Shown here one piece after another: positions 13,552-33,978 of a DNA stretch of 64,000 bases (position 1 is the stretch's first letter; every line of letters starts with the position of its first letter). The translations under genes were made by a program, and so were the position numbers. The notes below the pieces were generated by a model. The model did not search any database, was not told the origin of the DNA, and saw nothing but the letters and a program-made list of their open reading frames with translations. Where the stretch lies: positions 955-64,954 of the IMG/VR virus record IMGVR_UViG_3300030434_000006, one strand, 5' to 3'. Source of the stretch: a virus (Duplodnaviria > Heunggongvirae > Uroviricota > Caudoviricetes).

Positions 13552-14043
13552 ATGGACCAATCCCCGAACCGTAAAGCCTTTGGCGACATGCTGGCCTTTT
13601 CCGAAGGCACCAGTACACACCCGTTAACCCGTATGCGCGGCTACGACGTCATCGTGACCGGGCTGGGCGAAAAGCAGGGCGAAATCTTCACCGATTTCAG
13701 CGATCACCCGTTTGCACATCGTCAGGCAAAACAGATTAATCACAGCGGCCTGGCATCAACCGCAGCGGGCCGCTATCAGCAGCTTTACCGCTACTGGCCT
13801 GCCTACAAAAAGCAGCTGAGCCTGCCTGATTTTAGTCCCGCCTCACAGGAGCGATTACTCGATCAGCTGCTGAAAGAACAGGGTGCTTATGCCGACATTC
13901 TGGCTGGGCGGATCCGCACGGCGATCGGCAAAACCAACGATATCTGGGCATCGCTCACCGGTTCTCCTTATGGTCAGAAAACGCACAAGATTGATGTGCT
14001 GCTGACGGCCTATGTGAACGCTGGTGGCACAGTTACCGACTAA
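13552..14043 (+). CDS. endolysin, lambda R-type lytic transglycosylase (GH104)
   Basis: NRKAFGDMLAFSEGT, GYDVIV, FTDFSDHP, AAGRYQ, LSLPDFSP.SQ, IWASL and GGTV align residue-by-residue with lambda R; internal ATG at 13552 chosen (SD AGAGAG). Confidence 0.85.
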   Translation: MDQSPNRKAFGDMLAFSEGTSTHPLTRMRGYDVIVTGLGEKQGEIFTDFSDHPFAHRQAKQINHSGLASTAAGRYQQLYRYWPAYKKQLSLPDFSPASQERLLDQLLKEQGAYADILAGRIRTAIGKTNDIWASLTGSPYGQKTHKIDVLLTAYVNAGGTVTD

Positions 14044-14930
14044 TAGCAGCGAAAGCCTTCAGGCATGACTGAGTAATCCACACCCGCCGAAAAGCTGCCG
14101 CTCAATGGGTCAGAGTAGCGGCGGCCTTTCGGCTTCCTGCCACCAGCAGGCTTTGCCCTGAAGGTAGACTTCAGCGCCTGGTAGGCTTCATGCAGTACAC
14201 CGCCTTTTCGTTGAAAATCTTCAGCGCTACGTTCGTTCTGCGCAGCTGACGACGCAGCCGCCAGCTGCTTTTGCGTGTTCTGGTAGAACCCGAATTTTTT
14301 CACCGCAGCCGATTGTGATTCTGACGATTTTTCAACCACAGAGTTTAATGGCTCCCCATTTTGTATTTCTCTTTTACTGGAGGGATCTCTTAATTCTTGT
14401 TGGTCAGTTTGACCAGGGGGATCCTGTTCATTCTGACTAGGGGGGCTGTGGATAAAATCGTTTTTAAAGAAGGCGTTAGCGATGACTCTCCGGACTATGA
14501 TCTGGCGTCCGGACGGCTTCAGATTTGCCTCTTTCAGGGCTTCCAGGCTGGCCCGGACAAAGGACAGCGCTTTACTGGTAAACGTGTATTTGCTGGGCTT
14601 GCTGACGCTGTGATTTTTCTCGTCACGCTGCTCTTCATAGCTGAGGATCCCCAGCTTGACGGCTGCACGATAAGCACGCTGAACGGTAGAGATACTACAA
14701 CCGGCTTCTTCTGCCAGATTCCTGAGCGATTTGATAATGATGAAATCGGACGTGGAACCGGCCAGATTGCAGGCGAATTTTAAAACACGGGTAACTGACT
14801 TCGGGAGGGGGGAAAGTTCGATAATGTGGGTGAGATCAAAGCCTGTAATTCGGACAGATCTGTGCTCGTTATTTGAGCGAAATGCGGGAAAAGTGTTGCC
14901 GGGATCGGCGCTTTTAGCTACTATAGACAC
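14040..14930 (-). CDS. HTH DNA-binding protein with low-complexity S/Q-rich C-terminal half
   Basis: 296 aa; helix-turn-helix-like segment CSISTVQRAYRAAVKLGIL; function unknown (regulator or initiator-like). Confidence 0.3.
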   Translation of the reverse strand: MSIVAKSADPGNTFPAFRSNNEHRSVRITGFDLTHIIELSPLPKSVTRVLKFACNLAGSTSDFIIIKSLRNLAEEAGCSISTVQRAYRAAVKLGILSYEEQRDEKNHSVSKPSKYTFTSKALSFVRASLEALKEANLKPSGRQIIVRRVIANAFFKNDFIHSPPSQNEQDPPGQTDQQELRDPSSKREIQNGEPLNSVVEKSSESQSAAVKKFGFYQNTQKQLAAASSAAQNERSAEDFQRKGGVLHEAYQALKSTFRAKPAGGRKPKGRRYSDPLSGSFSAGVDYSVMPEGFRCY

Positions 14931-15293: not shown

Positions 15294-16295
15294 TTATCGT
15301 GTGTTAATCCACAGCAGCGGTGCTGAGTCCACGGCTGGCGGGCGCGTCTCTGGTAATGTGTGCTGGTGGGCGGTTCCGATCGGCAGCGTGGCCGTCGCAT
15401 TTGTACCGATTGATTCCAGCATTGCCGCGACGATCTGCGCATCTTCCGGCGTGTCCATCCGGCATAGTGCCGCCTGCTGGGCTTTACTTAAAAAAAGCGG
15501 CATGTTAGCCAGCGCATCCTTCATAATCCGGCGGCGCGCCTTTGCAACAGTACCTGCACTCTCGAGCATTAGCTGCGCGTTGCGCAGACGTTCCTCCAGC
15601 TCCAGACGCTTTCCATGCTCGATGTGAAGCGCAGATTCCATCAGCGAAGAATCCGCAGACTCTAGCATTGCCGCCTGGCCGCGCAGGGTTTCAAAATGCT
15701 GGATAATGTCGGCCGCCTGGTTCTCCGAATACCCCTTTTCAATCAGGCCCGCTTGCATAGCGTCGGCGCGTTCGCTGGCCGACTCCAGCAGCAGAGCTGG
15801 GTGATCCTGACTGATATAGTTCGGATTGGTCACATAATCGAAGCCGTGGAAGCTGGTCACTTTGGAAATGGCGTTATCATCACCACCTGTCGCCCACGAC
15901 CAGCCACCAGCGCGGGAACGGTTCATGCCGTCAACGATGTTGCCAGGCTCAGTGTCCAGAATCTCCTGAACGTGAGTCACAATGCCGTTATCGTCCACGC
16001 TGACATCCAGCGTACGGTTAGACGGTACGTTTTCCAGCGTCACCGGTTTCCCATCAACCATGACAACCGCAAATTCCGGCAGATTGAGCCGCCCGGTCTT
16101 AGCGTAATAGGCGGCGCGACGTCCGTGGCCGTAATATCCGAACATTTCCCCCAGCTGGATTCTCTCCAGAGTTTCGGGGCTGGCGAACGTCTCGCGGACA
16201 GAGCGCAGCAGGTAGTTGCGATCATTCTGTGGAGTAAATCGACGAATTTTATCAATCAATGAAAAACGATCCGTCACCGTACGGAGTGCTTCCAT
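15294..16295 (-). CDS. head morphogenesis protein (P1 Pro-position; protease/scaffold candidate)
   Basis: 333 aa; adjacent to the 565-aa head gene and to darB as in P1 darB-prt-pro; preceded by a late element. Confidence 0.3.
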   Translation of the reverse strand: MEALRTVTDRFSLIDKIRRFTPQNDRNYLLRSVRETFASPETLERIQLGEMFGYYGHGRRAAYYAKTGRLNLPEFAVVMVDGKPVTLENVPSNRTLDVSVDDNGIVTHVQEILDTEPGNIVDGMNRSRAGGWSWATGGDDNAISKVTSFHGFDYVTNPNYISQDHPALLLESASERADAMQAGLIEKGYSENQAADIIQHFETLRGQAAMLESADSSLMESALHIEHGKRLELEERLRNAQLMLESAGTVAKARRRIMKDALANMPLFLSKAQQAALCRMDTPEDAQIVAAMLESIGTNATATLPIGTAHQHTLPETRPPAVDSAPLLWINTR

Positions 16296-16367
16296 AAATA
16301 CCTCATATTCACAGGGTTATGCCCCGCAGAGCGGCGGCAGCGCTGGCGATAGCCTGCGTGAAAAGAT

Positions 16368-16385
16368 GGTAGGGAGGTTGTAATT
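16368..16385 (-). promoter_or_regulatory. late-operon conserved element AATTACAACCTCCCTACC (copy 5, minus strand)
   Basis: 16/18 match to the consensus; 73 nt upstream of the ATG at 16295 on the minus strand. Confidence 0.4.
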
Positions 16386-16426
16386 TATCGGGGTAGCGAT
16401 TCTTCGATTATCAGTGGATCTAATAA

Positions 16427-16442
16427 CCAGTGGATAATTTCA
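16427..16442 (-). promoter_or_regulatory. TGAAATTATCCACTGG element (family copy d)
   Basis: 15/16 identical to the copies at 36835 and 57099; contains a DnaA-box-like TTATCCACT. Confidence 0.4.
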
Positions 16443-16504
16443 TATTAGAAATATTGAATTTATCCGCGCCGGGGATATAGTGTGCGCGCCACTGTAAAAC
16501 AGTG

Positions 16505-16722
16505 GTCGGGATTGGAACCCCGAACGAATGTACGAGGAGGCACTTAGTGCCTCCGGCGCTACCACGTCTGGAGTTTGCCAGATGTTTCAATGGTGGCGTT
16601 GGCGGGGCTACCTTCGGGTAGGCCGGTCTCCTCGTACGCCGGTAGTTCCAACCCTGTCAACGTCACCACCCGGAGATTGGAACCTCCCGTAGTGACGCTT
16701 CCTTTTGTACGAGGAGCACTCC
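16505..16722 (+). promoter_or_regulatory. repeat-rich leader with a W/R-rich small upstream ORF
   Basis: three copies (two direct, one inverted) of GATTGGAACC..GTACGAGGAG; the SD of the gene at 16723 lies inside the third copy and is complementary to the inverted copy CTCCTCGTAC; uORF at 16582..16692 begins MFQWWRWRGYLRV. Confidence 0.4.
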
Positions 16723-16980
16723 ATGCCTGATATCCCTTATACGCCGTCCCAGGCAGTGCTTAGGTTCGCCAATGCCATGCTTGCCATAAGCCAGACAGAC
16801 AGTAGCATCTGTCGCCGTGCCAAATGGGGTGATAAACCTATTCACGTATTTACGCAGGCCGACTCAGACAGCCAGATGCAATTTATATTCATGGGCGAGT
16901 CCGGCGCGTTATCAATTTATGATCCAACACCTGAAGATATTTTGTCAGCCGACTGGCAGGTTATTTCGCTTCTGCACTGA
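16723..16980 (+). CDS. small protein, possible DUF2829/Tad2-like fold
   Basis: 85 aa from ATG 16723 (SD GAGGAG); CRRAKWGDKPIHVF and DILSADWQVI resemble DUF2829 motifs KVARKGWNGKG and DLLAEDWEIV (from memory). Confidence 0.3.
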   Translation: MPDIPYTPSQAVLRFANAMLAISQTDSSICRRAKWGDKPIHVFTQADSDSQMQFIFMGESGALSIYDPTPEDILSADWQVISLLH

Positions 16981-17043
16981 GAAGGTTGGATTAGCCGCGC
17001 AGGATCAGCTCATGTGCGGCTATGAATAATATTCAGCCTGACT

Positions 17044-18741
17044 TTATTTGTCTGGTGAGGTTACAAAACGAGCAAAGGCTATGAGTTCTTCACGGGACCA
17101 GCTGGCCGGATCACTGCCGTCAGGAGCAGATTCATTCATCATGCCGCCGCCGCCCTCATCCTCCTGAGCGTCCGCTTTCTTCCTGCTCTTCTCAAACTCC
17201 GCTAGCATTTTGTCGAGCGTGCCGCCGTCCATCTTCAGCTGATCACTGAACAGGTAGCGCATGAATGTGTCGTTCTCCGCCAGCTTGTTGTTGGCCTGCA
17301 GCGCATCCATGACCTGCACCATCAGGGTAATGAAGTTGGCGCGGGCGTCCATTTCGCGGCTTTCTTCTTCCTGAATGGCGGTGTTCATCGAGTTGAACTG
17401 AACTACATAGGGCCGATCCTTAACCGGGTAAACCTTGCCGTATTTGAACGCCAGGTGAATATCGATCAGCCGGTAAATCATTTCCTGCGCGCCCTGTCGC
17501 AGCCACTGCGCCCGGAGTGCCGCCTGTATAGCCGTCTGAATCCAGCCGCCTTCACCCAGCCCGCCCGCCATCTGATCGGCCCACCCCAGCATAGTCGAGT
17601 CGATACCGAGCGCAGCGCACAGCTGGCGCAGGTGAAACATCACGTCCTCAATGCCGGTAATGTCCGCGGGTATCGACTGCGTGTCGATCGTAATGCCGTT
17701 TTTACCGTCTCCCATCACCGGGATCACATGGTTCATCACGGTTGGCATAGTGTTGCCGTTAACCGCTTTTTTCTGGAGTGCTTCGCCGTGGCGCTTGAGC
17801 GTCTGCGACACAGTGCGGGTGTAGTTCGCACCGACAACCGGATCGAGTGAGTTGGTTGTCAGGGCAATCAGGCGGTCAATTTTGGCGGCGTTGTAGCGCG
17901 TTGCCTTCAGCGCATTCAGCGCGCCGACCAGATTCAGGAAAGGCTCATAGGCATGCGCCAGGAAGCTAGTGCCGTAATTCTGCGTCTCCGCAACCTCCTT
18001 GTCCTCTTCCTCTGATAGCAGAGAGTAACCACGATTGCCGGACGTCACGGGCTGAACGTTGCGCGTCGGGGTCCAGTACGGATTTTTCATCGGGACCAGA
18101 GACCACGGCGTAGATAGTGTGCGGGTATGGGTGTCTGGCGAAAGCACATAATCCCCGCCGAAGCCCACCAGCTGATCGCCTTTGTAAAACTCCTGAATGA
18201 AGTAGGGCAACGAGTAATAGCTATTTTCCAGGCTGGTGATCCCTTTCCCTGAGCGGGCATAAGGGCGCACATAGGACACGCCGAAAATCGCCATTGTCAT
18301 AGCCAGCGACGGCAGGTGTCGGTTAATCATCGCGCCCAAATCATCCTGTAGCTCTTTGGCCCGCGCCGCGCCTTCTGCGTCGGACGGGTCAACCGGCACA
18401 ATAGAGAACGCCAGCCCGGTTTTTTTGTCCGGCGCGAGTGCGTGGCCAATGTGGATATTCAGAGCGGCTGAGCACGTTGGGCTATTCGCCATTTCTTCCA
18501 GAATCGCATAGCGCTGCAGCCTGTCCAGCGGCAGCTCCGCGCCCAGGAAAAGACTGTCGCCGGCGGAAGTCATTTCCCCGGCATTTCCCTCTTTGTAGGC
18601 CATTGCCGCCAGCCCGGAGCGCGAGACGACCACGTTCTGTCCGTTGGTCCATGCGAGGCTTTGCGGTGCTTCTGCTGCCGCGCCCCGGAATGCCTGCCTC
18701 AATGCGCTTAAAACAGACAGTGCCTTATTTTTAGTAGCCAA
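17044..18741 (-). CDS. portal protein candidate (or major head protein)
   Basis: 565 aa minus-strand structural gene between the 333-aa head gene and darB (P1 prt position); no motif certain. Confidence 0.35.
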   Translation of the reverse strand: MATKNKALSVLSALRQAFRGAAAEAPQSLAWTNGQNVVVSRSGLAAMAYKEGNAGEMTSAGDSLFLGAELPLDRLQRYAILEEMANSPTCSAALNIHIGHALAPDKKTGLAFSIVPVDPSDAEGAARAKELQDDLGAMINRHLPSLAMTMAIFGVSYVRPYARSGKGITSLENSYYSLPYFIQEFYKGDQLVGFGGDYVLSPDTHTRTLSTPWSLVPMKNPYWTPTRNVQPVTSGNRGYSLLSEEEDKEVAETQNYGTSFLAHAYEPFLNLVGALNALKATRYNAAKIDRLIALTTNSLDPVVGANYTRTVSQTLKRHGEALQKKAVNGNTMPTVMNHVIPVMGDGKNGITIDTQSIPADITGIEDVMFHLRQLCAALGIDSTMLGWADQMAGGLGEGGWIQTAIQAALRAQWLRQGAQEMIYRLIDIHLAFKYGKVYPVKDRPYVVQFNSMNTAIQEEESREMDARANFITLMVQVMDALQANNKLAENDTFMRYLFSDQLKMDGGTLDKMLAEFEKSRKKADAQEDEGGGGMMNESAPDGSDPASWSREELIAFARFVTSPDK

Positions 18742-18820: not shown

Positions 18821-21800
18821 GTGGAAAATCCAGTAAACAGGGCTGTGCAGGAGGCGGGATCGGTTGAGGAACTGATCCGGCTGGTCATGCGCCTGCACAA
18901 ACAGCGAACCGTAGTAGCGTTTGGCGTGACCAAGCGTGAAGGCGTGAGCCTGCAGCGTGAGCGCCGGAATGCAAACGACAATGCGATCGAGCTGCTTAAC
19001 TCACTGCCCCAGGGCTTCGACGGCAATAAACTGACCGACGATCAGCGCCGGGTATTGGCGGGCTACAGCGGCGAGGGCGGTCTGGAAGGCAGCGGCGGCA
19101 GTCAGTATGAGTACTACACACCGCCATTCATGGCGGAAGGTATCTGGGATCTGTTTTCCGATTACGGTATTACCAGCGGTCACATGCTGGAGCCGTCTGC
19201 CGGTACTGGCGTTTTTCAGGAGACAAAACCGGCTGGCGCCATGATGACGTCGGCCGAGATTTCGGACACGTCGGGACGCATTAACCAGCTGCTGCACCCG
19301 GAGGACGATGTTCGCCTGGGCGCGTTTGAGAAGCTGGCGGCATCAGTGCCGGATAACAGCTATGACCATGCCGTAGGCAATGTGCCGTTTGGCGACTCGC
19401 GCACTGGCTTTGCCGAGCTCGATCCCGCTTACCGCGATGAAACTAACGTCGGCCACTACTTTGTGATGCGCACCATCGACAAGGTGAAGTATGGCGGGCT
19501 GGTGGTGCTGGTGGTGCCGAACGGCATGACCGACGGCGGCGGCAACAACAAAAAGCTGCGCGATCGCGTTTCCCGTGTGGCGGAGTTCCTGGGCGCGCAC
19601 CGCATGCCGTCCGGCACGTTTGCCGAAAGCGGTACCGCAACGGTGGTGGATGTGTGGGTACTGCGAAAGCATACCGAAGCGCTGATGCAGCTGGTGCATG
19701 ATAGCGATGAACAGTCGCTTGAGGCGGCAAGCGTGCTATGGCCAACGTTCATCCGGGGCAAATGGTTCGAAACCGAAGGCCGTCGCTTTGTTCACGGTGA
19801 AACTGAGCGATCTGACTTCAATAACATCCTGGTGGTGAAGAAAGATGGCCAGCTGACCAATGCGGCAATGAAGGCCGCGCTGTCGCGCCGCTTTGATAGC
19901 CGTATCGACTGGGATCGGCTGGGTACGCCTGCCGCTGTCTGGCAGTCGCCGGTTGAAGGTGATAAGCGCCTCATGGCTGGCGTCTGGCACACCTATGACG
20001 GCACACGTTTTATCAAAGACGCCACCACCGCATCGAGCGGGATCGACGCGGAGCGGTTCGGCGCGGCGACGTTTGGCGACCTGCAGACAAAAACGCGCAC
20101 CATCAACGGCATGCTGTCGCTGGACAGCCGCGCCCTGTATGCCGCCAGCATGGAATACCCGCAGCTGTTTGACGATCGCATTCACGCCGCGATCCGTTTC
20201 GCTATGCAGCAGAAGCCCGGCCACCGATGGCGCGTTATGCGTGCCTCGATTATCGGTCTGCGCATCAATGACGCGCTGAATACGCAGATGCTGGGCGGCG
20301 ACGCCAGCGGCATCATTGCCGACGCTGCCCGCCTGGTGAGCGAAGAGGTGGGCCAGTACGGCACGCCGAAAGGCCTGAAACTGGCGGGGCTGTCTGACGC
20401 CAGCGCAAAGGGCTGGCTGAGTTTTCAGGCCAACGTCAGCCGTGAAGGCGATCTGTCGGCGCTGCTGAACGGCACCATCGACCGTAGCGAGGCTGTGGCA
20501 GTTGATTTCGCCAGCCCGGAGCAGGTGGTATCACATCTTTTCAGCGACGTTGATCTGGTTCCGGTTGCACTGGCCGCCTTCCGCGCCGCGTTTACCGGCC
20601 AGCTGCCGGAGGATGACGACGCGCTGCTGGCGCACCTGGCGACCTTCCCGGAGATCGCCCTCGATGGCAACGGCAACGTCATGCCACTGGCCCGCGCCAC
20701 CAGCGGGAACGTGCGCGGCAAAGTCTCCCGCCTGGCGGGGCTGATTGACGACGCGCCGGATGGCCCGGTAAAGGCGAACTATGTCCGCCAGCTGGAAGCC
20801 ATTAACGAGAAGCGCAATCACACGCCGATCGAAGACATTACGGTTAACCTCAATGCCCGCTGGCTGGACCGCCGCCTGATCAAAGAGTTTCTGATCGAGC
20901 AGGGCTTTGATGACTTCAAATACACGCAGGACCTGGAAAACGACAACGGTTATCTGACCGCAGAAGACAATTACGCAGGCAAAGACGGCGTTTTCTCTGG
21001 CTACCAGGTTCGCTCTGTCAACAGCAAAGGCGGCGTGACCGAGTTCAAGCGCGCCAGCTACAAAGACGGCTTCTACAATCAGCTGGAAAACTACCTGAAT
21101 GGCGTGAAGCCACGCGGGATAAATGCCAATGCGTACCTGAAGCGCATCAGCGATCTGGAGTCACATTTCAACGACTGGCTGCGCACGCACCCGGATGTGG
21201 AAACCGTCGTCAGCGACTACAACGACGCCTTTAACGGCTACGTTCCGTTTGAGCACTCGTCTGCCTCGCTGCAGCTGCAGCAGATCAGCGGCAAACGTAT
21301 TCCTCTGAGCTATCAGAATGCGGAAGTCCGGCGCCTGTCGGAAGACGGCCGCGGCATCATGGGCTTTGGCACGGGTCTGGGTAAAACCACCACGGCGCTG
21401 GCGCTGGAAGCCTATAACTACGAGGTGGGGCGCAGTAAGCGAACTGTCTACGTTGTGCCAAAAGCGGTCCTCCAGAACTGGTATCACGAAGCCCAGGGCT
21501 TCTACAGCGCCGAGGCCTTCCAGAACATTCTGTTTGTCGGGCTGGATGAAGTGCGCGGCGAAGATGGCCAGATCATGCAGGCCCAGGAGCGCGACGAGAA
21601 CAACGAGCCGAAACTGGACAAAGACGGCCAGCCGGTGATGCGTAATGTCGTGAAAGAGTCCGCGGCCGCAACCGTGCTTGAGCGCATGAATATGATCCCG
21701 GTTTCCAACTACCGCGCCGTGGTGATGACCAAAGAGCAGTTTGGCGATATCCCGATGCGCCCGGAGACAATCGAGGAAAACTCCAGCCAAGCGGTCTTTA

Positions 21801-24800
21801 ACCAGATTGAGAATGGCCGCACGGACCTGATGAAGTCCACGCACCGCGCCGCCACGTCCCGTAACAAACTCCGCGACAAAGCCGCCGATACCGGCACGAA
21901 GAAAAAGAGCCAGATCCCGTACTTTGAGGATATGCACTTTGACAGCGTGATCGCAGACGAAGGGCATAACTACCGCAACTCGCACAGCGCCGGACGTGAA
22001 GCAGGCCAGCTGGCCTACCTGCCTAATCCGTCTGTCTCCAAGATTGCCCGCGATATGGCCGTAAAAAGCCAGTACATGATGAAAAAGTACAACGGCCGTG
22101 GCGTCGTTATGCTGACCGCCACGCCGCTGGTCAACTCCCCGATTGACGCCTTTAACATGCTGTCACACGTCGTGTCGCTGGATGAATGGAAGGCGATGGG
22201 GATTCTGACGCCGGATGACTTTGTGCGGGTGTTCGGTGAAACCGAATCCGTGACGGTGCAGAAGATTTCAGGCGAACTGGAGGACAAGCAGGGGCTGGTG
22301 GGCTTCAAAAACCTGGACGGTCTGCGCGGCATCTTCCATCGCTGGACGACGCTCAAGTCTGCTGCTGACGTGAAAGACAGCGTGAAGATACCAGGCCTCG
22401 ACGAGAAAACCGTGGGTGTGCCGATGACCCGCGACCAGAAGGAGCTTTATGAAGAGCTGCGCCAGCGCGCCAGCCGTATCGGGCAGCAGGAATCCCTGCA
22501 GGACAATGGCGACGGTACTATGTCCATCGTACAGAACGACGACGATTTCATTTTCTCTGTTATCCGCGACATGGATAAGGTGGTTATCGATCCGGACCTG
22601 TACCGCTCTGCTATAACGTTCCGCTTCCGTGAAGAGGACACTGAGCTGGCGAAACAGGTGGCGCGGGCGCTGCCGGGTGAGGCTGGTGGCCAGCTGCTTG
22701 CCGGTGATGATGAAGAGACCGCTGAGGACGCGGAAACCGGTCTAACCGACACGCGCACCAGTAAGGTAGTCAAGACCACGCTGAAGAATCGCGGGGGCGT
22801 CGTGGAGCTGGTGGTGAGCGACACGCTGGAGCAGCAGGTACTGGATGCGATCGCCGCTGCCGGTATCAGCATGGAAAACGTCTCGCACCCGGTACCGCCG
22901 AAGTATGCCGCGCTGATTGAAAACCTGAAGGCAGGCCTGCCAGACGGTAAGCAGATCATTTTCATGGATGAAAAGTCCCAGCACAACAAGCTGCGCCGCA
23001 TCATCGCCAGCGCCCTGGGCCTGGCGGAGCAGCAGATAGGCATCATCAACGCCACAACAGTCAGCAAAGCGTCTGGCGTGAAGTTGAAGCCCGTGAAGAA
23101 ACCGGTTGAGCCGGTGGAAAAAGCGGACGGTAGCTTTAAGGAAGGCGCATGGGATAAGTACTATCAGGATCTGGCGCGCTATGAGGATTATCAGGCCGCG
23201 CAGAGTGACGCCTCGCTGGCCGGTATGGAAGGGATCGCCGCCGACTACAACGAAGGCCGCACGCCAATCATCATCTGCAACAAAAAGGCCGAAGTGGGGA
23301 TCAACCTGCACAAAGGCACCGCCGATACGCACCATCTGACACTCCCCTGGACGCCAGCCAGTATCGACCAGCGTAACGGACGCGGCGCCCGCGTGGGCTC
23401 CGAGCGCGACACCATGCGCGTGCATTACTACTGTGGCAAAGGGTCATTTGACGAGTTCCGTCTGGAGACGCTGCAGCGCAAGAAAAACTGGATCAACGAC
23501 GTCATGAAATCCGACGTATCCAGCATTAAAAACGGCGATGTGGAGTCGAAAGAAGAGCAAAGCCTGCTGCTGGCCGCTAATCCGGAAGAGCGCCGCGCCC
23601 GCGTCGATGCACAGCTGAAAGCGAAGCGTGAAGCCGACCGTCAGCAGGCCGAGCGCGAAGCTGCTGCCGCGCTGGATATCTATCTGAAGGCAAGCGTCGC
23701 CGCTGCTACACCTGTTGAAGTGCTTGAAGACAATATTACCAAGCTGTCTGCTGCCTTTGATGCGATCAACGGCGAGATTGCTGGCTATCGCGAGGACGTC
23801 ACCGAAGCGGAAGCAGCCTATAACCTTGAAGTTGAGAAGTATGGCAAACGGTCAGCAGATCAGTGGCGCGGTCAGGACCGTCGCGTAGCGCGTGCTGCAC
23901 TCCGTGATGGCCTGGCGAAGCAGAAGAAGCTGGAGCAGGAGCTGGGCGGCGCACGCAAGGCGCTGACTCGCTCCAAAAGTGCATCCAGCACCATCAAGCG
24001 CTCCCGCGGGGAAGTCGAACGCGCAATTAAGTCCGGCGCGCTGGAAGTCGATCCGGACGTGCTGCGCGCCCCGGAGCAGTACATGAAACTGCCCGATGGT
24101 CAGCTGGTGCGTATTGGCGCGACCTATGAAATCTGGCTCAACGATGACCGTGAAGAAAAGGGCGTATTCCAGATCCGCAAATTCTTCCCGGAGAAAAATA
24201 CGGTTGAGGTTGAGCTGATCCACAAGCCGCTGCGCAGCTATACCGGTCCGAATGTCGGTGGCTTTGCTGAAATGCCTTCTGCGCTGGTGGGCGACCGCGT
24301 GGATATCACCAGTGACCAGGCAAAAGCGCTTCAGACAGCAGCGAAGGGCATCGAGCCGATAGACCTGGCGGACAGACTGAGCCGTGCTGACTTTTACGCG
24401 GCCATTCACGCTGGCGTGCTGAATGTGCGCACGGACGGATGGCTGTACCGCGACAGCGACGGCAGGCTGAAACTGGCATACCTCAGCGGCACGATCAGCG
24501 CCAGCGAAGAGCGACCGGCTGAAACGTGGCTGTACCCGGACCACACCGACGAGCAGTTGAAGCGTGAGCTTTATCAGTACAGCGTGGACAACAACATCTA
24601 CAGCGCGCAGGGCTTCTTTAAGGCAATGTTTGGCCGTAACTACGACACAGCATTGCAGGCTTACGGGAAGCAGGCGGGCATGGCGGACGTGGTTAAAGTC
24701 TTTAACAGACTAGTGGCCGAGTTCGAAGCGAATGACCCCAAAAAGCGGTCAGTGACCGGCGCGAATGATGAAGAGGCTCATGCCGCCTTCCTGGATTCGG

Positions 24801-25690
24801 CGCAGGACCGTTACTACTGGAGCAACGTTATCAGCCTTCGTCAGTTCCGTAACGGCATGGAGGGCTTCTCTAACCGTCATGAGTACGAAGCGCTATTCGA
24901 ACAACTGCGTAACGAGATGGCCGACGGCAAGGTGCAGGCTGTCAAATCACTGACAGAACAGTATGCCGCCGCCGCGCTGCAGCAGTTCCGCCAGATGAGC
25001 GAGAGTGATAGCCAGGCCGGTATTGCCGTGCTGCTGGTGAAGTCTAAGTTTGATGCTTACAGTGACGTTGACCGGGCAGCAACCGTAACGGAGTCACCGG
25101 CAGCAATTTATCTGCGCGCCGGCGTTTCACTGGGTGCGCTCGATGACGCCGGAATCAACGTCGAAACGTTCGCCTCATCCAGCGCTATTAAGCGGCAGCT
25201 AACGATGGTTTATCTGTGGCTGGATCGAATGGAAAAAGGCGATTACCGCGAGTACGCGACGACGTGGGACGACTATAAAGCGCTGATGACCGGCAAGCTG
25301 TCGCCTGACGTTGTGGAGGCCCGCCGTGAAGAAACCAACAGACTCGCGGCGGCCGCGGCAACGACCGTGCGTACCGTTCAGGCAGAGAAGCAGTCCGATG
25401 GCTTCCTGGTCATGACAAACGAGCAGGAGCTGGTGGCTTCGCGCAAGTGGAAGAACCGCACCTTTAAAATCGACTTCCCGGCTGGTGGCGCTTATGTCCT
25501 GACGGACACCAGTGATAAGCCGGTGCTTAAGCGCAAAGCGGTGCGTGATCTCATCAAAGAGAAGTACGGCGCGAAATTCTGGAATTTTGAAGAAGATCCG
25601 GTAGCCGGAAACGAGTTTACACAAGCCGCCTGGCTTATCCCTTCCTCCCACGATCTCAATGCGTTACGCAACGATATTGTAAACGCATAA
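18821..25690 (+). CDS. DarB-like antirestriction protein: N6-adenine methyltransferase fused to SNF2-type helicase
   Basis: 2289 aa; MTase motif I LEPSAGTGVF and motif IV GNVPFG; helicase Walker A GFGTGLGKTTTA, DEGH box IADEGHNYRN, motif VI QRNGRGARVG; size and domain order match P1 DarB (2255 aa). Confidence 0.7.
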   Translation: MENPVNRAVQEAGSVEELIRLVMRLHKQRTVVAFGVTKREGVSLQRERRNANDNAIELLNSLPQGFDGNKLTDDQRRVLAGYSGEGGLEGSGGSQYEYYTPPFMAEGIWDLFSDYGITSGHMLEPSAGTGVFQETKPAGAMMTSAEISDTSGRINQLLHPEDDVRLGAFEKLAASVPDNSYDHAVGNVPFGDSRTGFAELDPAYRDETNVGHYFVMRTIDKVKYGGLVVLVVPNGMTDGGGNNKKLRDRVSRVAEFLGAHRMPSGTFAESGTATVVDVWVLRKHTEALMQLVHDSDEQSLEAASVLWPTFIRGKWFETEGRRFVHGETERSDFNNILVVKKDGQLTNAAMKAALSRRFDSRIDWDRLGTPAAVWQSPVEGDKRLMAGVWHTYDGTRFIKDATTASSGIDAERFGAATFGDLQTKTRTINGMLSLDSRALYAASMEYPQLFDDRIHAAIRFAMQQKPGHRWRVMRASIIGLRINDALNTQMLGGDASGIIADAARLVSEEVGQYGTPKGLKLAGLSDASAKGWLSFQANVSREGDLSALLNGTIDRSEAVAVDFASPEQVVSHLFSDVDLVPVALAAFRAAFTGQLPEDDDALLAHLATFPEIALDGNGNVMPLARATSGNVRGKVSRLAGLIDDAPDGPVKANYVRQLEAINEKRNHTPIEDITVNLNARWLDRRLIKEFLIEQGFDDFKYTQDLENDNGYLTAEDNYAGKDGVFSGYQVRSVNSKGGVTEFKRASYKDGFYNQLENYLNGVKPRGINANAYLKRISDLESHFNDWLRTHPDVETVVSDYNDAFNGYVPFEHSSASLQLQQISGKRIPLSYQNAEVRRLSEDGRGIMGFGTGLGKTTTALALEAYNYEVGRSKRTVYVVPKAVLQNWYHEAQGFYSAEAFQNILFVGLDEVRGEDGQIMQAQERDENNEPKLDKDGQPVMRNVVKESAAATVLERMNMIPVSNYRAVVMTKEQFGDIPMRPETIEENSSQAVFNQIENGRTDLMKSTHRAATSRNKLRDKAADTGTKKKSQIPYFEDMHFDSVIADEGHNYRNSHSAGREAGQLAYLPNPSVSKIARDMAVKSQYMMKKYNGRGVVMLTATPLVNSPIDAFNMLSHVVSLDEWKAMGILTPDDFVRVFGETESVTVQKISGELEDKQGLVGFKNLDGLRGIFHRWTTLKSAADVKDSVKIPGLDEKTVGVPMTRDQKELYEELRQRASRIGQQESLQDNGDGTMSIVQNDDDFIFSVIRDMDKVVIDPDLYRSAITFRFREEDTELAKQVARALPGEAGGQLLAGDDEETAEDAETGLTDTRTSKVVKTTLKNRGGVVELVVSDTLEQQVLDAIAAAGISMENVSHPVPPKYAALIENLKAGLPDGKQIIFMDEKSQHNKLRRIIASALGLAEQQIGIINATTVSKASGVKLKPVKKPVEPVEKADGSFKEGAWDKYYQDLARYEDYQAAQSDASLAGMEGIAADYNEGRTPIIICNKKAEVGINLHKGTADTHHLTLPWTPASIDQRNGRGARVGSERDTMRVHYYCGKGSFDEFRLETLQRKKNWINDVMKSDVSSIKNGDVESKEEQSLLLAANPEERRARVDAQLKAKREADRQQAEREAAAALDIYLKASVAAATPVEVLEDNITKLSAAFDAINGEIAGYREDVTEAEAAYNLEVEKYGKRSADQWRGQDRRVARAALRDGLAKQKKLEQELGGARKALTRSKSASSTIKRSRGEVERAIKSGALEVDPDVLRAPEQYMKLPDGQLVRIGATYEIWLNDDREEKGVFQIRKFFPEKNTVEVELIHKPLRSYTGPNVGGFAEMPSALVGDRVDITSDQAKALQTAAKGIEPIDLADRLSRADFYAAIHAGVLNVRTDGWLYRDSDGRLKLAYLSGTISASEERPAETWLYPDHTDEQLKRELYQYSVDNNIYSAQGFFKAMFGRNYDTALQAYGKQAGMADVVKVFNRLVAEFEANDPKKRSVTGANDEEAHAAFLDSAQDRYYWSNVISLRQFRNGMEGFSNRHEYEALFEQLRNEMADGKVQAVKSLTEQYAAAALQQFRQMSESDSQAGIAVLLVKSKFDAYSDVDRAATVTESPAAIYLRAGVSLGALDDAGINVETFASSSAIKRQLTMVYLWLDRMEKGDYREYATTWDDYKALMTGKLSPDVVEARREETNRLAAAAATTVRTVQAEKQSDGFLVMTNEQELVASRKWKNRTFKIDFPAGGAYVLTDTSDKPVLKRKAVRDLIKEKYGAKFWNFEEDPVAGNEFTQAAWLIPSSHDLNALRNDIVNA

Positions 25691-30160: not shown

Positions 30161-30224
30161 GCAGGTTTAGCTCAGTCGGTAGAGTGTTCCATTGTCGGCG
30201 GTTCAATTCCGTCAACCTGCACCA
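30161..30224 (+). pseudogene. truncated tRNA-like element (acceptor, D-arm and T-arm present; no anticodon arm)
   Basis: 7-bp acceptor GCAGGTT/AACCTGC, D-arm TAGCTCAGTCGGTAGAGT, T-arm GGCGG-TTCAATT-CCGTC, then ACCA; only 11 nt where the anticodon arm should be. Confidence 0.35.
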
Positions 30225-33393: not shown

Positions 33394-33978
33394 ATGATGA
33401 CCGCTCAACAATTAAATGCAACGATCGCCATGATTGCAGACGCAGAAGCCGACTATGCAGGCGATTACATGGCGCTGCTGGCTGTCATTGCCCGCTTGGG
33501 ATACACCATTACAGAGACGTCTGAGACCAAAACTGACGGATACGCAGCCGTTATCAGCAAAAGCGGCCTGACTATGACCGGTTTTGGCGAAACCCTGAAC
33601 CACGCCGCCTGTGCCGCGCTGATTAAGCTGAATGATCTTATCCTGCGCAACGAAGCGATGATTGATACCGGTGAACTGAGTTTCAGGCAGGAGCAAGCAC
33701 CGCTGGCCGTCGCGCAGCTGTGGCTGTCTGAGGGCTGCAAAGTGGCGAGGGCAACATGGGGGAAGGGCGTTCATCTGCGCCTCACCAGAGGGCTGACACG
33801 CGCAGCACTGAATGGATCAGACATGTATGGCGTACCGGCCCGCTACTTTGATTGCAGCCAGGATGTGGCCGTAACGCAGATGCCCCAGCTTTTGCTCATT
33901 GATACCGAAAAGCTAACGGTTTCCGACTGGGCGCCAGCCTCAACAGATCTTCTCGCAAGCGACTGGAGGCTGGTGTAG
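33394..33978 (+). CDS. two-domain protein with C-terminal DUF2829/Tad2-like domain
   Basis: 194 aa; EGCKVARATWGKGVHLRL and SDWAPASTDLLASDWRLV resemble Tad2 motifs QGKKVARKGWNGKGMYL and PWLASQTDLLAEDWEIV (recalled). Confidence 0.4.
   Translation: MMTAQQLNATIAMIADAEADYAGDYMALLAVIARLGYTITETSETKTDGYAAVISKSGLTMTGFGETLNHAACAALIKLNDLILRNEAMIDTGELSFRQEQAPLAVAQLWLSEGCKVARATWGKGVHLRLTRGLTRAALNGSDMYGVPARYFDCSQDVAVTQMPQLLLIDTEKLTVSDWAPASTDLLASDWRLV

Follow-up and report, generated by a model that had tools for sequence, protein, structure and literature searches.

The DNA analyzed here is a stretch of 64,000 nucleotides from the IMG/VR record IMGVR_UViG_3300030434_000006 (positions 955 to 64,954), which we call the window. 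On its plus strand there is a short cassette comprising a structured leader followed by an 85-amino-acid (aa) open reading frame (ORF). The leader contains a C4 antisense RNA, the family to which the c4 repressor RNA of phage P1 belongs, together with target sites for that RNA, and the ORF encodes a protein of the Tad2 family (DUF2829). Positions 16427-16980 are likely a re-wired control module of the P1 immI type with a Tad2-like protein as its output, and this is the reading that best explains all the observations jointly. The cassette lies between two minus-strand head genes, as recorded in an earlier first-pass annotation of the same DNA, and we find that these flanking genes are pro and prt.

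A C4 antisense RNA in the leader

The leader is organized around repeated sequences. By direct reading and by repeat scan, GATTGGAACC starts at 16510 and again at 16675, and TGTACGAGGAG starts at 16529 and at 16706. The reverse complement CTCCTCGTAC occupies 16628-16637, with GTTCCAA, also in inverted orientation, at 16645-16651. The 10-mer GTACGAGGAG and the heptamer TTGGAAC are thus each present twice in direct and once in inverted orientation; for the 10-mer such an occurrence within the 476-nucleotide (nt) stretch arose in 2 of 5000 dinucleotide-preserving shuffles. The last direct copy includes the sequence GAGGAG, located 7 nt 5′ of the ATG at 16723 that begins the 85-aa ORF. All of these repeats are found exactly where the first-pass annotation had placed them. 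It had also noted that the Shine-Dalgarno (SD) sequence of the gene falls in the last copy and could pair with the inverted one, and the two copies are indeed fully complementary (inverted repeat I8, 100%).

That annotation took the arrangement to be a translational attenuator. We find instead that the inverted copy provides the two recognition sequences, a′ and b′, of a discrete C4 antisense RNA. The Rfam C4 model (RF01695) matches with a score of 81.8 bits against a gathering threshold of 45 (E = 6.5e-16), covering model positions 1-87 of 87. With this model the reference c4 RNAs of P1 and of the related phage-plasmid D6 scored 68.8 and 69.6 bits respectively, both below the score in the window. 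This is the only C4 match at the gathering threshold in the 64-kb window, and there is likewise a single one in a complete 90-kb relative. It is virtually certain that the RNA is a member of the C4 family. Upstream, the c4-a1b1 model (RF03163) aligns with 16475-16526 (40.0 bits, E = 5e-8), short of its cut-off of 46.7; it reaches 48.8 bits in the sister locus L041 (we number the loci with the prefix L), 51.0 in P1 and 55.9 in D6. There is also a weak match to isrK (RF01394) in the leader, below gathering at 31.6 bits. The trio of c4-a1b1, weak isrK and C4 matches is common to P1, D6 and the window.

Folded in isolation, the 88-nt C4 stretch forms a 17-bp closing stem and two hairpins. The minimum free energy structure is the same as the centroid (-44.8 kcal/mol, z = -4.6). 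The inverted 10-mer makes up the entire loop of hairpin 2, and the unpaired junction 3′ of this hairpin contains GUUCCAA. Over 17 variants the stems are paired in 99% of cells and every stem change is wobble-compatible, compared with 30-50% pairing in controls with slid partners. By aligning the ends with those of the annotated P1 c4 we predict that the mature RNA runs from G16592 to C16670, a length of ~79 nt. It would begin with G at +1 and would end in a tRNA-like acceptor stem followed by A-C-C, which fits processing by RNase P.

One further element of the leader might affect this maturation. A nearly invariant segment, CGCUACCA (16557-16564), can pair with UGGUGGCG (16591-16598), the 5′ strand of the c4 closing stem, mimicking the 3′ partner of that strand. 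The pairing is present in the centroid fold of the whole leader, and may represent an alternative fold of the precursor.

Target sites in the leader

The three copies of the repeats constitute a C4 switch of the P1 type, that is a small RNA together with target sites upstream (a1 and b1) and downstream (a2 and b2). The coordinates are collected in Table 1. The a′ sequence is invariant and pairs with both a1 and a2 in all variants. In the window the starts of a2 and b2 are 30 nt apart, and the ATG is 7 nt 3′ of b2.

The b1 site is partly sequestered by a hairpin at 16536-16554. A hairpin in this position, able to sequester a first SD sequence, had been part of the attenuator interpretation. It does exist, with arms at 16536-16544 and 16546-16554, although it reads GGAGGCAC-TTA-GTGCCTCC and is not a 9-bp stem with a TAG loop apart from it. 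The supposed first SD sequence has no gene behind it, and is b1, a decoy or target site for c4.

In an attenuator acting in cis, ribosomes on a Trp/Arg-rich upstream ORF (uORF) would determine whether the inverted copy sequesters the SD sequence of the same molecule. The window does contain the uORF, which starts with the ATG at 16582-16584 and ends 30 nt before the gene; the inverted copy is able to pair with the SD copy, and in an unprocessed precursor pairing between b′ and b2 is physically possible. The uORF is nevertheless not functional. Of the 16 leader variants only 5 offer a start codon (ATG, GTG or TTG) and 11 lack one; one variant has an in-frame stop, and no SD sequence precedes the uORF. 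It is located within the RNA gene, to which the C4 covariance model aligns at full length, and its Trp and Arg codons (W-W-R-W-R) are the GGUGGCGUUGG strand of the 17-bp closing stem, kept by wobble-compatible changes. Moreover, the inverted copy is displayed in a loop and a junction of a stable structure, as in an antisense RNA built to act in trans. We reject the leader-peptide attenuator because the uORF is not a conserved coding feature, and regard it as extremely improbable.

Table 1. Positions of the features of the cassette within the window
Feature	Position	Strand	Basis and remarks
Operator-like motif CCAGTGGATAATTTCA	16427..16442	+	11 nt 5′ of the -35 hexamer
Sigma-70-type promoter, TTGAAT-16 nt-TATAGT	16454..16481	+	Predicted by consensus scan
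Leader element of c4-a1b1 type	16475..16526	+	Two hairpins, a1 exposed in the second loop; RF03163 match below cut-off
a1 site TTGGAAC	16512..16518	+	Complements a′; 7/7 pairs in 16/16 leader variants; equivalent to annotated P1 a1
b1 site GTACGAGGAG	16530..16539	+	Complements b′; inverted repeat I7, 100% complementary
uORF MFQWWRWRGYLRV...	16582..16692	+	Overlaps c4, unconserved; listed for exclusion only
C4 antisense RNA gene	16586..16673	+	RF01695 full-model match
b′ recognition loop CUCCUCGUAC	16628..16637	+	10-nt loop of c4 hairpin 2 (fold); 2 positions covary with b2
a′ recognition sequence GUUCCAA	16645..16651	+	Single-stranded junction between hairpin 2 and closing stem (fold)
a2 site TTGGAAC	16677..16683	+	Starts 7 nt past the predicted c4 3′ terminus; paired with a′ in 99% of cells
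b2 site GTACGAGGAG	16707..16716	+	Holds the SD sequence GAGGAG of the Tad2-like gene; inverted repeat I8
85-aa Tad2-like (DUF2829) gene	16723..16980	+	PF11195, AlphaFold2/Foldseek, family profile
Imperfect inverted repeat I4	16992..17022		13-nt arms, 85% complementary; between the convergent tad2-like and prt genes

Co-variation of the RNA with its target sites

If c4 acts through these sites then changes in the recognition loop should be matched in the targets. The first-pass annotation had proposed covariation in homologous loci as a check on the leader; there the repeats are conserved and compensatory changes are present. We gathered the homologous slot from 4 plasmids, 27 viral contigs and 7 contigs encoding distant homologues of the protein. 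The leaders comprise 16 distinct sequences among close relatives and five that are more distant. Over these leaders the c4 gene is almost invariant, with the encoded protein going down to 29-35% identity.

The helix formed between b′ and b2 is 98-100% paired in 16-17 distinct leaders, compared with 30-50% in slid controls; the shuffle statistics given by the pair-counting tool are not probabilities. At two positions both sides of the helix have changed (C-G to U-A, and A-U to G-C), and four further changes are wobble-compatible. Over 37 related loci the b′, b2 and b1 sequences vary jointly, making at least three specificity variants (Table 2).

Table 2. Sequences of b′ and b2 in the specificity variants
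Type or locus	b′	b2
Type I	CUCCUCGUAC	GUACGAGGAG
Type II	UUUCUUGUGC	GCACAAGGAG or GCACAGGGAG
L038	UUCCUCGUAC	GUACGAGGAA
L039	UUCCUCGUAC	GUACGAGGAG
L042-L044	UUCCUCGUAC	GUACAAGGGG, one A-C mismatch with b′
L041	UCCCUUGUAC	GUACAAGGAG

Calculated duplex energies agree with a division into types. In the window the cognate b′-b1 duplex has an energy of -23.5 kcal/mol (the other types range from -11 to -17 kcal/mol), and the cognate b′-b2 duplex one of -19.9 kcal/mol. Placing the type I loop on a type II b2 gives -9.8 kcal/mol, against the -19.9 kcal/mol on its own target. The type II loop is G-U-rich and by the same calculation tolerates both types of target. These energies suggest a real specificity between c4 types. 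Duplex folding also shows that b1 tracks the specificity changes of its own c4, with the register shifted by 2 nt in type II. Because of this shift, a count made in fixed register finds only 72% of b1-b′ positions paired.

A natural recombinant was observed within this set. Loci L029 and L030 have type I a1 and b1 sequences with the c4 and b2 of type II.

The Tad2-like protein

The first-pass annotation had noted a weak resemblance of the 85-aa protein to the Tad2 anti-Thoeris sponges and proposed structure prediction as a check. Both have borne out. Residues 15-81 match PF11195 (Tad2-like/DUF2829) with 31.6 bits against a threshold of 25, over model positions 3-73 of 73. An AlphaFold2 model calculated from 10 relatives has a predicted local distance difference test score (pLDDT) of 69.3, and when it is compared with the PDB using Foldseek the top 20 matches are all Tad2 structures (8wje, 8sme, 8smf, 8smg, 9eib and 8v3e, including SPO1 Tad2 and ModTad2). 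These have a probability of 1.0, template modelling (TM) scores of 0.58-0.63, a root-mean-square deviation of ~2.5 Å and 15-20% identity in the structural alignments, and the next matches have E > 0.3. By sequence, a family profile finds SPO1 Tad2 (E = 2e-5), ModTad2 and AcrIIA7. The protein is a member of the Tad2 family by sequence and fold.

In SPO1 Tad2 the ligand gcADPR (glyco-cyclic ADP-ribose) is contacted by W25, N26, W73 and D79 (10.1101/2023.05.01.538930). In an alignment made with HMMER, W25 corresponds to W35, which is invariant, and D79 to D72, which is near-invariant; W73 corresponds to Y66, which is likewise aromatic, whereas at N26 the contact residue is lost (G36). The motifs CRR.KWG and Y.P..D...DW are conserved over deep divergence. 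Judged from its sequence and the model, whether the protein is a working anti-Thoeris sponge is evenly balanced.

Other searches with the protein gave little. There was no match to PDB sequences using phmmer with the single protein, and none in NCBIfam, PHROGs or PADLOC; the Pfam hidden Markov model, the family profile and the fold search are thus its sole links to Tad2. BLASTP gave no alignment with P1 Icd. No match was found by tblastn against phages, and against plasmids it found six phage-plasmid records only, five from Pantoea and one labelled Acinetobacter venetianus. A homologue search with the distant protein P0016 returned no match in the genome and viral contigs, and the distant loci were obtained by exact look-up. 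Several of the distant homologues are called as proteins of 68-69 aa starting from an internal Met. Among the closer relatives the ORF is interrupted in four loci, by a TAG at codon 10 (L029, 1710-1967, and L030) or by deletion of 1 nt (L031, ~2698-2955, and L032), and in these c4 and its target sites are intact.

In PGAP annotation the orthologues carry the name 'MW1434 family type I TA system toxin', where TA denotes toxin-antitoxin. This raises the alternative that the DUF2829 protein is a toxin with c4 as its antitoxin, the pair stabilizing the plasmid-prophage by post-segregational killing. Formally, a low-copy plasmid whose small ORF has its SD sequence covered by an antisense RNA does have a type I layout, and the gene has been knocked out in some relatives, as toxins often are. 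The MW1434 label, however, is of purely bioinformatic origin, tracing to a list of Staphylococcus aureus candidates (PMC6266405), and NCBI has more recently named the same clusters 'Thoeris anti-defense Tad2 family protein'. The protein has the fold of a Tad2 sponge. It is acidic and looks soluble, with a grand average of hydropathy of -0.07 and a highest 19-residue Kyte-Doolittle mean of 0.81, and so no membrane helix or other hydrophobic segment. No toxin was matched in PADLOC or NCBIfam. A toxin-antitoxin system is therefore very unlikely. Two annotations are thereby corrected: the toxin name has no experimental basis, and the apparent uORF is not coding.

A second Tad2-like gene is present in the window at 33394-33978 (+). 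It encodes 194 aa, with PF11195 matching the C-terminal part (residues 110-194, 40.6 bits), and its orthologue in NZ_CP141613 has also been named 'MW1434 family type I TA system toxin'. The Rfam scan of the window found no C4 near this gene.

Promoter and candidate operator

A sigma-70-type promoter is predicted upstream of the leader (Table 1). Both hexamers are kept in 30 of the 32 aligned leaders, and the predicted start of transcription is just 5′ of the first leader hairpin.

Beside the promoter is an operator-like motif that is conserved in all leaders. Allowing up to 3 mismatches, the 16-nt motif CCAGTGGWTAATTTCA has 11 sites in the window compared with 0.82 expected (16427, 28383, 36835, 43576(-), 43603(-), 57099, 59335(-)/59344, 62262 and 62311, with 38882 inside an ORF). 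Most of them are in intergenic promoter regions, including those 5′ of ref-like, pmgS-like and pacA-like genes and one beside umuD. In P1, ref is controlled by the C1 repressor. From its recurrence we consider CCAGTGGWTAATTTCA a candidate operator for a C1-type repressor of this phage, occupying the position of Oc4/Op51 in P1. The window has no copy of the operator consensus of P1 C1.

A neighboring 17-mer around TCTAATAA, also 5′ of the promoter, was dropped as a lead, as it is unique in the window and the P1 C1 consensus is absent. The motif CCAGTGGWTAATTTCA resembles the AAGTGAYTW -22 box of P1-type late (Lpa) promoters, and it matches a DnaA box in 8 of 9 positions. Either resemblance may be meaningful, but a function as an Lpa late promoter is unsupported, as the -10 hexamers 3′ of the sites are poor and there is no copy before prt or lyz.

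Genomic context

The window represents a Pantoea phage-plasmid of the P1-like kind, with ~90% identity over 8 kb to ~90-kb plasmids of P. agglomerans, and the cassette is identical to that of a 90.7-kb IMG/VR contig. The gene pro (15294-16295, minus strand) belongs to PHROG 1801, and its counterparts in relatives are annotated as 'head processing protein'; prt (17044-18741, minus strand), of PHROG 1497, is the portal gene. In P1 and D6 these two genes either overlap or have 13 nt between them, and those of P1 belong to a single late operon. In the Pantoea clade they are separated by a cassette of 748 bp on the opposite strand. The cassette is an insertion, given that P1 and D6 have prt next to pro.

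Neither icd nor ant is found 3′ of the cassette, where the next feature is the convergent prt 64 nt away. D6 has a conventional c4-icd-ant module one gene beyond pro. Given this proximity, the Pantoea module may derive from such a neighbor by rearrangement and replacement of the cargo. The association of c4 with the Tad2-like gene extends further, as seven loci of five distant homologues have C4 (77-85 bits) directly upstream, in the same slot between pro and prt. One distant homologue, in an unrelated phage context, is without C4. When the cassette was compared with phage genomes by blastn there were only two short c4-like matches, in phiP27 and Shae_phiSM, and their contexts were uninformative.

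The interval between the tad2-like gene and prt is 55-65 nt in the window, and elsewhere reaches ~1.9 kb. In some relatives this slot holds a two-gene candidate defence system (L038, 2750-5165; L039, 2278-3540; L042-L044, 3385-5784), identified using PADLOC as a PtuA-like ATPase/PDC-M01A (E = 4e-186) with PDC-M01B (E = 1e-110). In L039 it begins 8 nt after the tad2 stop codon, and so it may share the c4-controlled transcript. Other loci carry paralogues of ~150 and ~100 aa (L014, 3487-3933; L017, 3483-3962; L023, 4528-4836; L024, 4489-4791; L004, 6789-7097) that have a common N-terminal Cys-containing domain with the motif KYYV.FH.ESG.L.HR..C..LP...R.FIG..Y...QA..VA......CP.C. These Cys-rich proteins have no match in Pfam or PADLOC.

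Such cargo raises the question of what the RNA controls. It might serve as an expression platform or immunity determinant for everything in the pro/prt slot, with the ORF an icd-like leader and any anti-defence role secondary or absent. The genes in the slot of relatives have the same orientation, including the PtuA-like/PDC-M01 system close behind the ORF in L039, and c4 is retained where the 5′ part of the ORF is broken. There is also a precedent, in that c4 of P1 controls ant indirectly, through translation of icd (PMC8198154). Against this, in the window and in 4 of the 16 leader variants nothing follows the gene before the stop codon of prt. The Tad2 motifs are conserved over deep divergence, indicating selection on the protein itself, and it would make little sense to silence a defence system in the lysogen. 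We consider a platform for the whole slot distinctly unlikely as a general explanation; it is possible where cargo follows, though not in the window.

Some other features of the region were observed. The inverted repeat at 16992-17022 may form a hairpin at the end of the cassette, one that would be non-canonical as a terminator, and the terminator scan made no call there. On the minus strand of 16296-16523, the complement of the a1 hairpin followed by a run of T scores as terminator-like (16523-16506). A gene for a DarB-like methylase/helicase of 2289 aa (18821-25690, plus strand) adjoins prt, as in P1. Directly after pro, as in D6, is a gene for a RepL-type helix-turn-helix protein of 296 aa (14040-14930, minus strand; PHROG 2418), which in relatives matches PF26868 (Phage_P1_RepL). 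At 30161-30221 (+) Rfam finds a tRNA of 61 nt with 47.4 bits, and ARAGORN finds no tRNA in the window; this may be a truncated or unusual phage tRNA.

A model for control of the Tad2-like gene

How temperate phages time and limit the expression of anti-defence genes is poorly understood. A sponge that disarms the immunity of the host would be useful on entry into a cell and harmful to the lysogen. The arrangement of the cassette suggests a way in which these needs could be met. By analogy with P1, c4 probably represses the Tad2-like gene through b2 and a2. The sigma-70 promoter would transcribe a1, b1, c4, a2 and b2 followed by the Tad2-like gene. As for P1 c4, the RNA of ~79 nt would be cut from this transcript by RNase P and would act in trans, the b′ loop and the a′ junction pairing with b2 and a2 of the mRNA. 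Such pairing would occlude the ribosome-binding site and block translation of the Tad2-like ORF, possibly followed by Rho-dependent termination.

In an established plasmid-prophage the accumulated c4, together with the repressor, would keep the anti-defence gene silent. On entry into a cell free of c4 there would be a short pulse of Tad2-like protein lasting until c4 builds up. The most likely role of the protein would be to sequester a Thoeris-type nucleotide signal of host immunity. Silence in lysogeny suits an anti-defence gene, since the sponge would otherwise disarm the immunity of the lysogen itself. The inferred parts of this scheme are that the RNA is processed and acts in trans, that translation is repressed, when the gene is expressed, that the motif is an operator and that the protein binds a ligand.

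Several points weigh against this model. The repression and its timing are taken wholly from the analogy with P1. As c4 and its target come from one transcript they are made 1:1, which bears on how the protein could escape repression. The c4-a1b1 element of the window scores below the Rfam cut-off, and recurrence of the motif is the one ground for assigning the operator, with the P1 consensus absent. The b2 of L042 has a single A-C mismatch to its own b′. As the compensatory changes are confined to a small set of lineages (types I and II, with the variants of L038/L042 and of L041), they stem from few independent events, perhaps only two to four. Confidence in the structural model of the protein is moderate, and two of the SPO1 contacts are replaced, N26 by Gly and W73 by Tyr. 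Finally, in 4 of 32 loci a nonsense or frameshift mutation disrupts the 5′ part of the gene while c4 is intact, and c4 may thus be kept for a reason beyond control of the Tad2-like protein.

The pairing of c4 with a Tad2-like gene is conserved over a clade of P1-like phage-plasmids, with specificity variants that co-evolve. The system is directly testable, because the natural variants show compensatory mutants of loop and target. We found no report of antisense-RNA control of a Tad2 gene in the searchable literature, and if our inference holds this would be the first control at the RNA level of an anti-Thoeris-type gene to be found there. A more speculative extension is that a resident c4 silences the Tad2-like gene of an incoming related phage with the same a′/b′ specificity, exposing that phage to the signalling defence. 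We think this unlikely; if true, the diversification of b′, b1 and b2 would be an escape race like the heteroimmunity of P1 and P7, conducted over an anti-defence gene instead of an antirepressor, and more broadly c4 would be a portable switch for the anti-defence cargo of phage-plasmids, giving a pulse at entry and silence in the lysogen.

Comparison with known systems

The closest parallel is the immI region of P1 and P7, which the cassette resembles in the RNA family, its fold and the order of elements, namely operator, promoter, a1, b1, c4, a2, b2 over the SD sequence, and a small ORF. The P1 record (NC_005856) has the order Oc4; P2c4, P1c4; a1, b1; c4 (77 nt); a2; b2; icd. There a2 starts 4 nt after c4 (7 nt here), the starts of a2 and b2 are 29 nt apart (30 nt here), and icd begins 11 nt after b2. 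The 5′ G and the tRNA-like 3′ A-C-C ends of c4 are the same. P1 c4 is cut out of its transcript and is a repressor RNA acting on a2 and b2 (Citron & Schuster 1990, as summarized in PMC8198154). Specificity variants arise by matched changes of b′, b1 and b2 both here and in P1 and P7, and P1 and D6 differ in b′, b1 and b2 only. The recognition sequences are different, with a′ being GUUCCAA here and CUGUCAA in P1, and b′ being CUCCUCGUAC here and UCACUAAC in P1. Icd and the putatively controlled ORF are unrelated, and no antirepressor gene comes after the ORF. Lastly, the module is on the opposite strand between prt and pro, whereas that of P1 is in the immunity region next to kilA-repL.

D6 (MF356679) is a P1-like phage-plasmid that has the closest portal protein, with 64% identity. 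Its c4 (69.6 bits) and c4-a1b1 (55.9 bits) are one repL-like gene away from pro. Unlike the module here, that of D6 shares its strand with prt, pro and repL, and it drives icd and a Roi/Ant-like antirepressor, with no Tad2-like gene there. The leader also has weak matches to the IsrK region of Gifsy-1 (RF01394) and to RF03163, and the leaders of P1 and D6 likewise match both. IsrK is reported to act as a dual small and messenger RNA.

The output has its parallel in SPO1 Tad2, ModTad2 and HgmTad2 (AcrIIA7). The 85-aa protein shares with these one N-terminal helix and an antiparallel sheet, is similar in length to the 89-aa SPO1 Tad2, and conserves Trp and Asp at ligand-contact positions.

In function there is an analogy with anti-CRISPR operons repressed by Aca proteins, where an anti-defence gene and a dedicated negative regulator share one transcription unit, so that a pulse of expression is followed by shut-off. 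Aca is a DNA-binding protein that acts at the promoter, whereas here an antisense RNA would act at the ribosome-binding site. The cassette thus joins a known RNA family and a known mode of action to a new output and a new genomic position.

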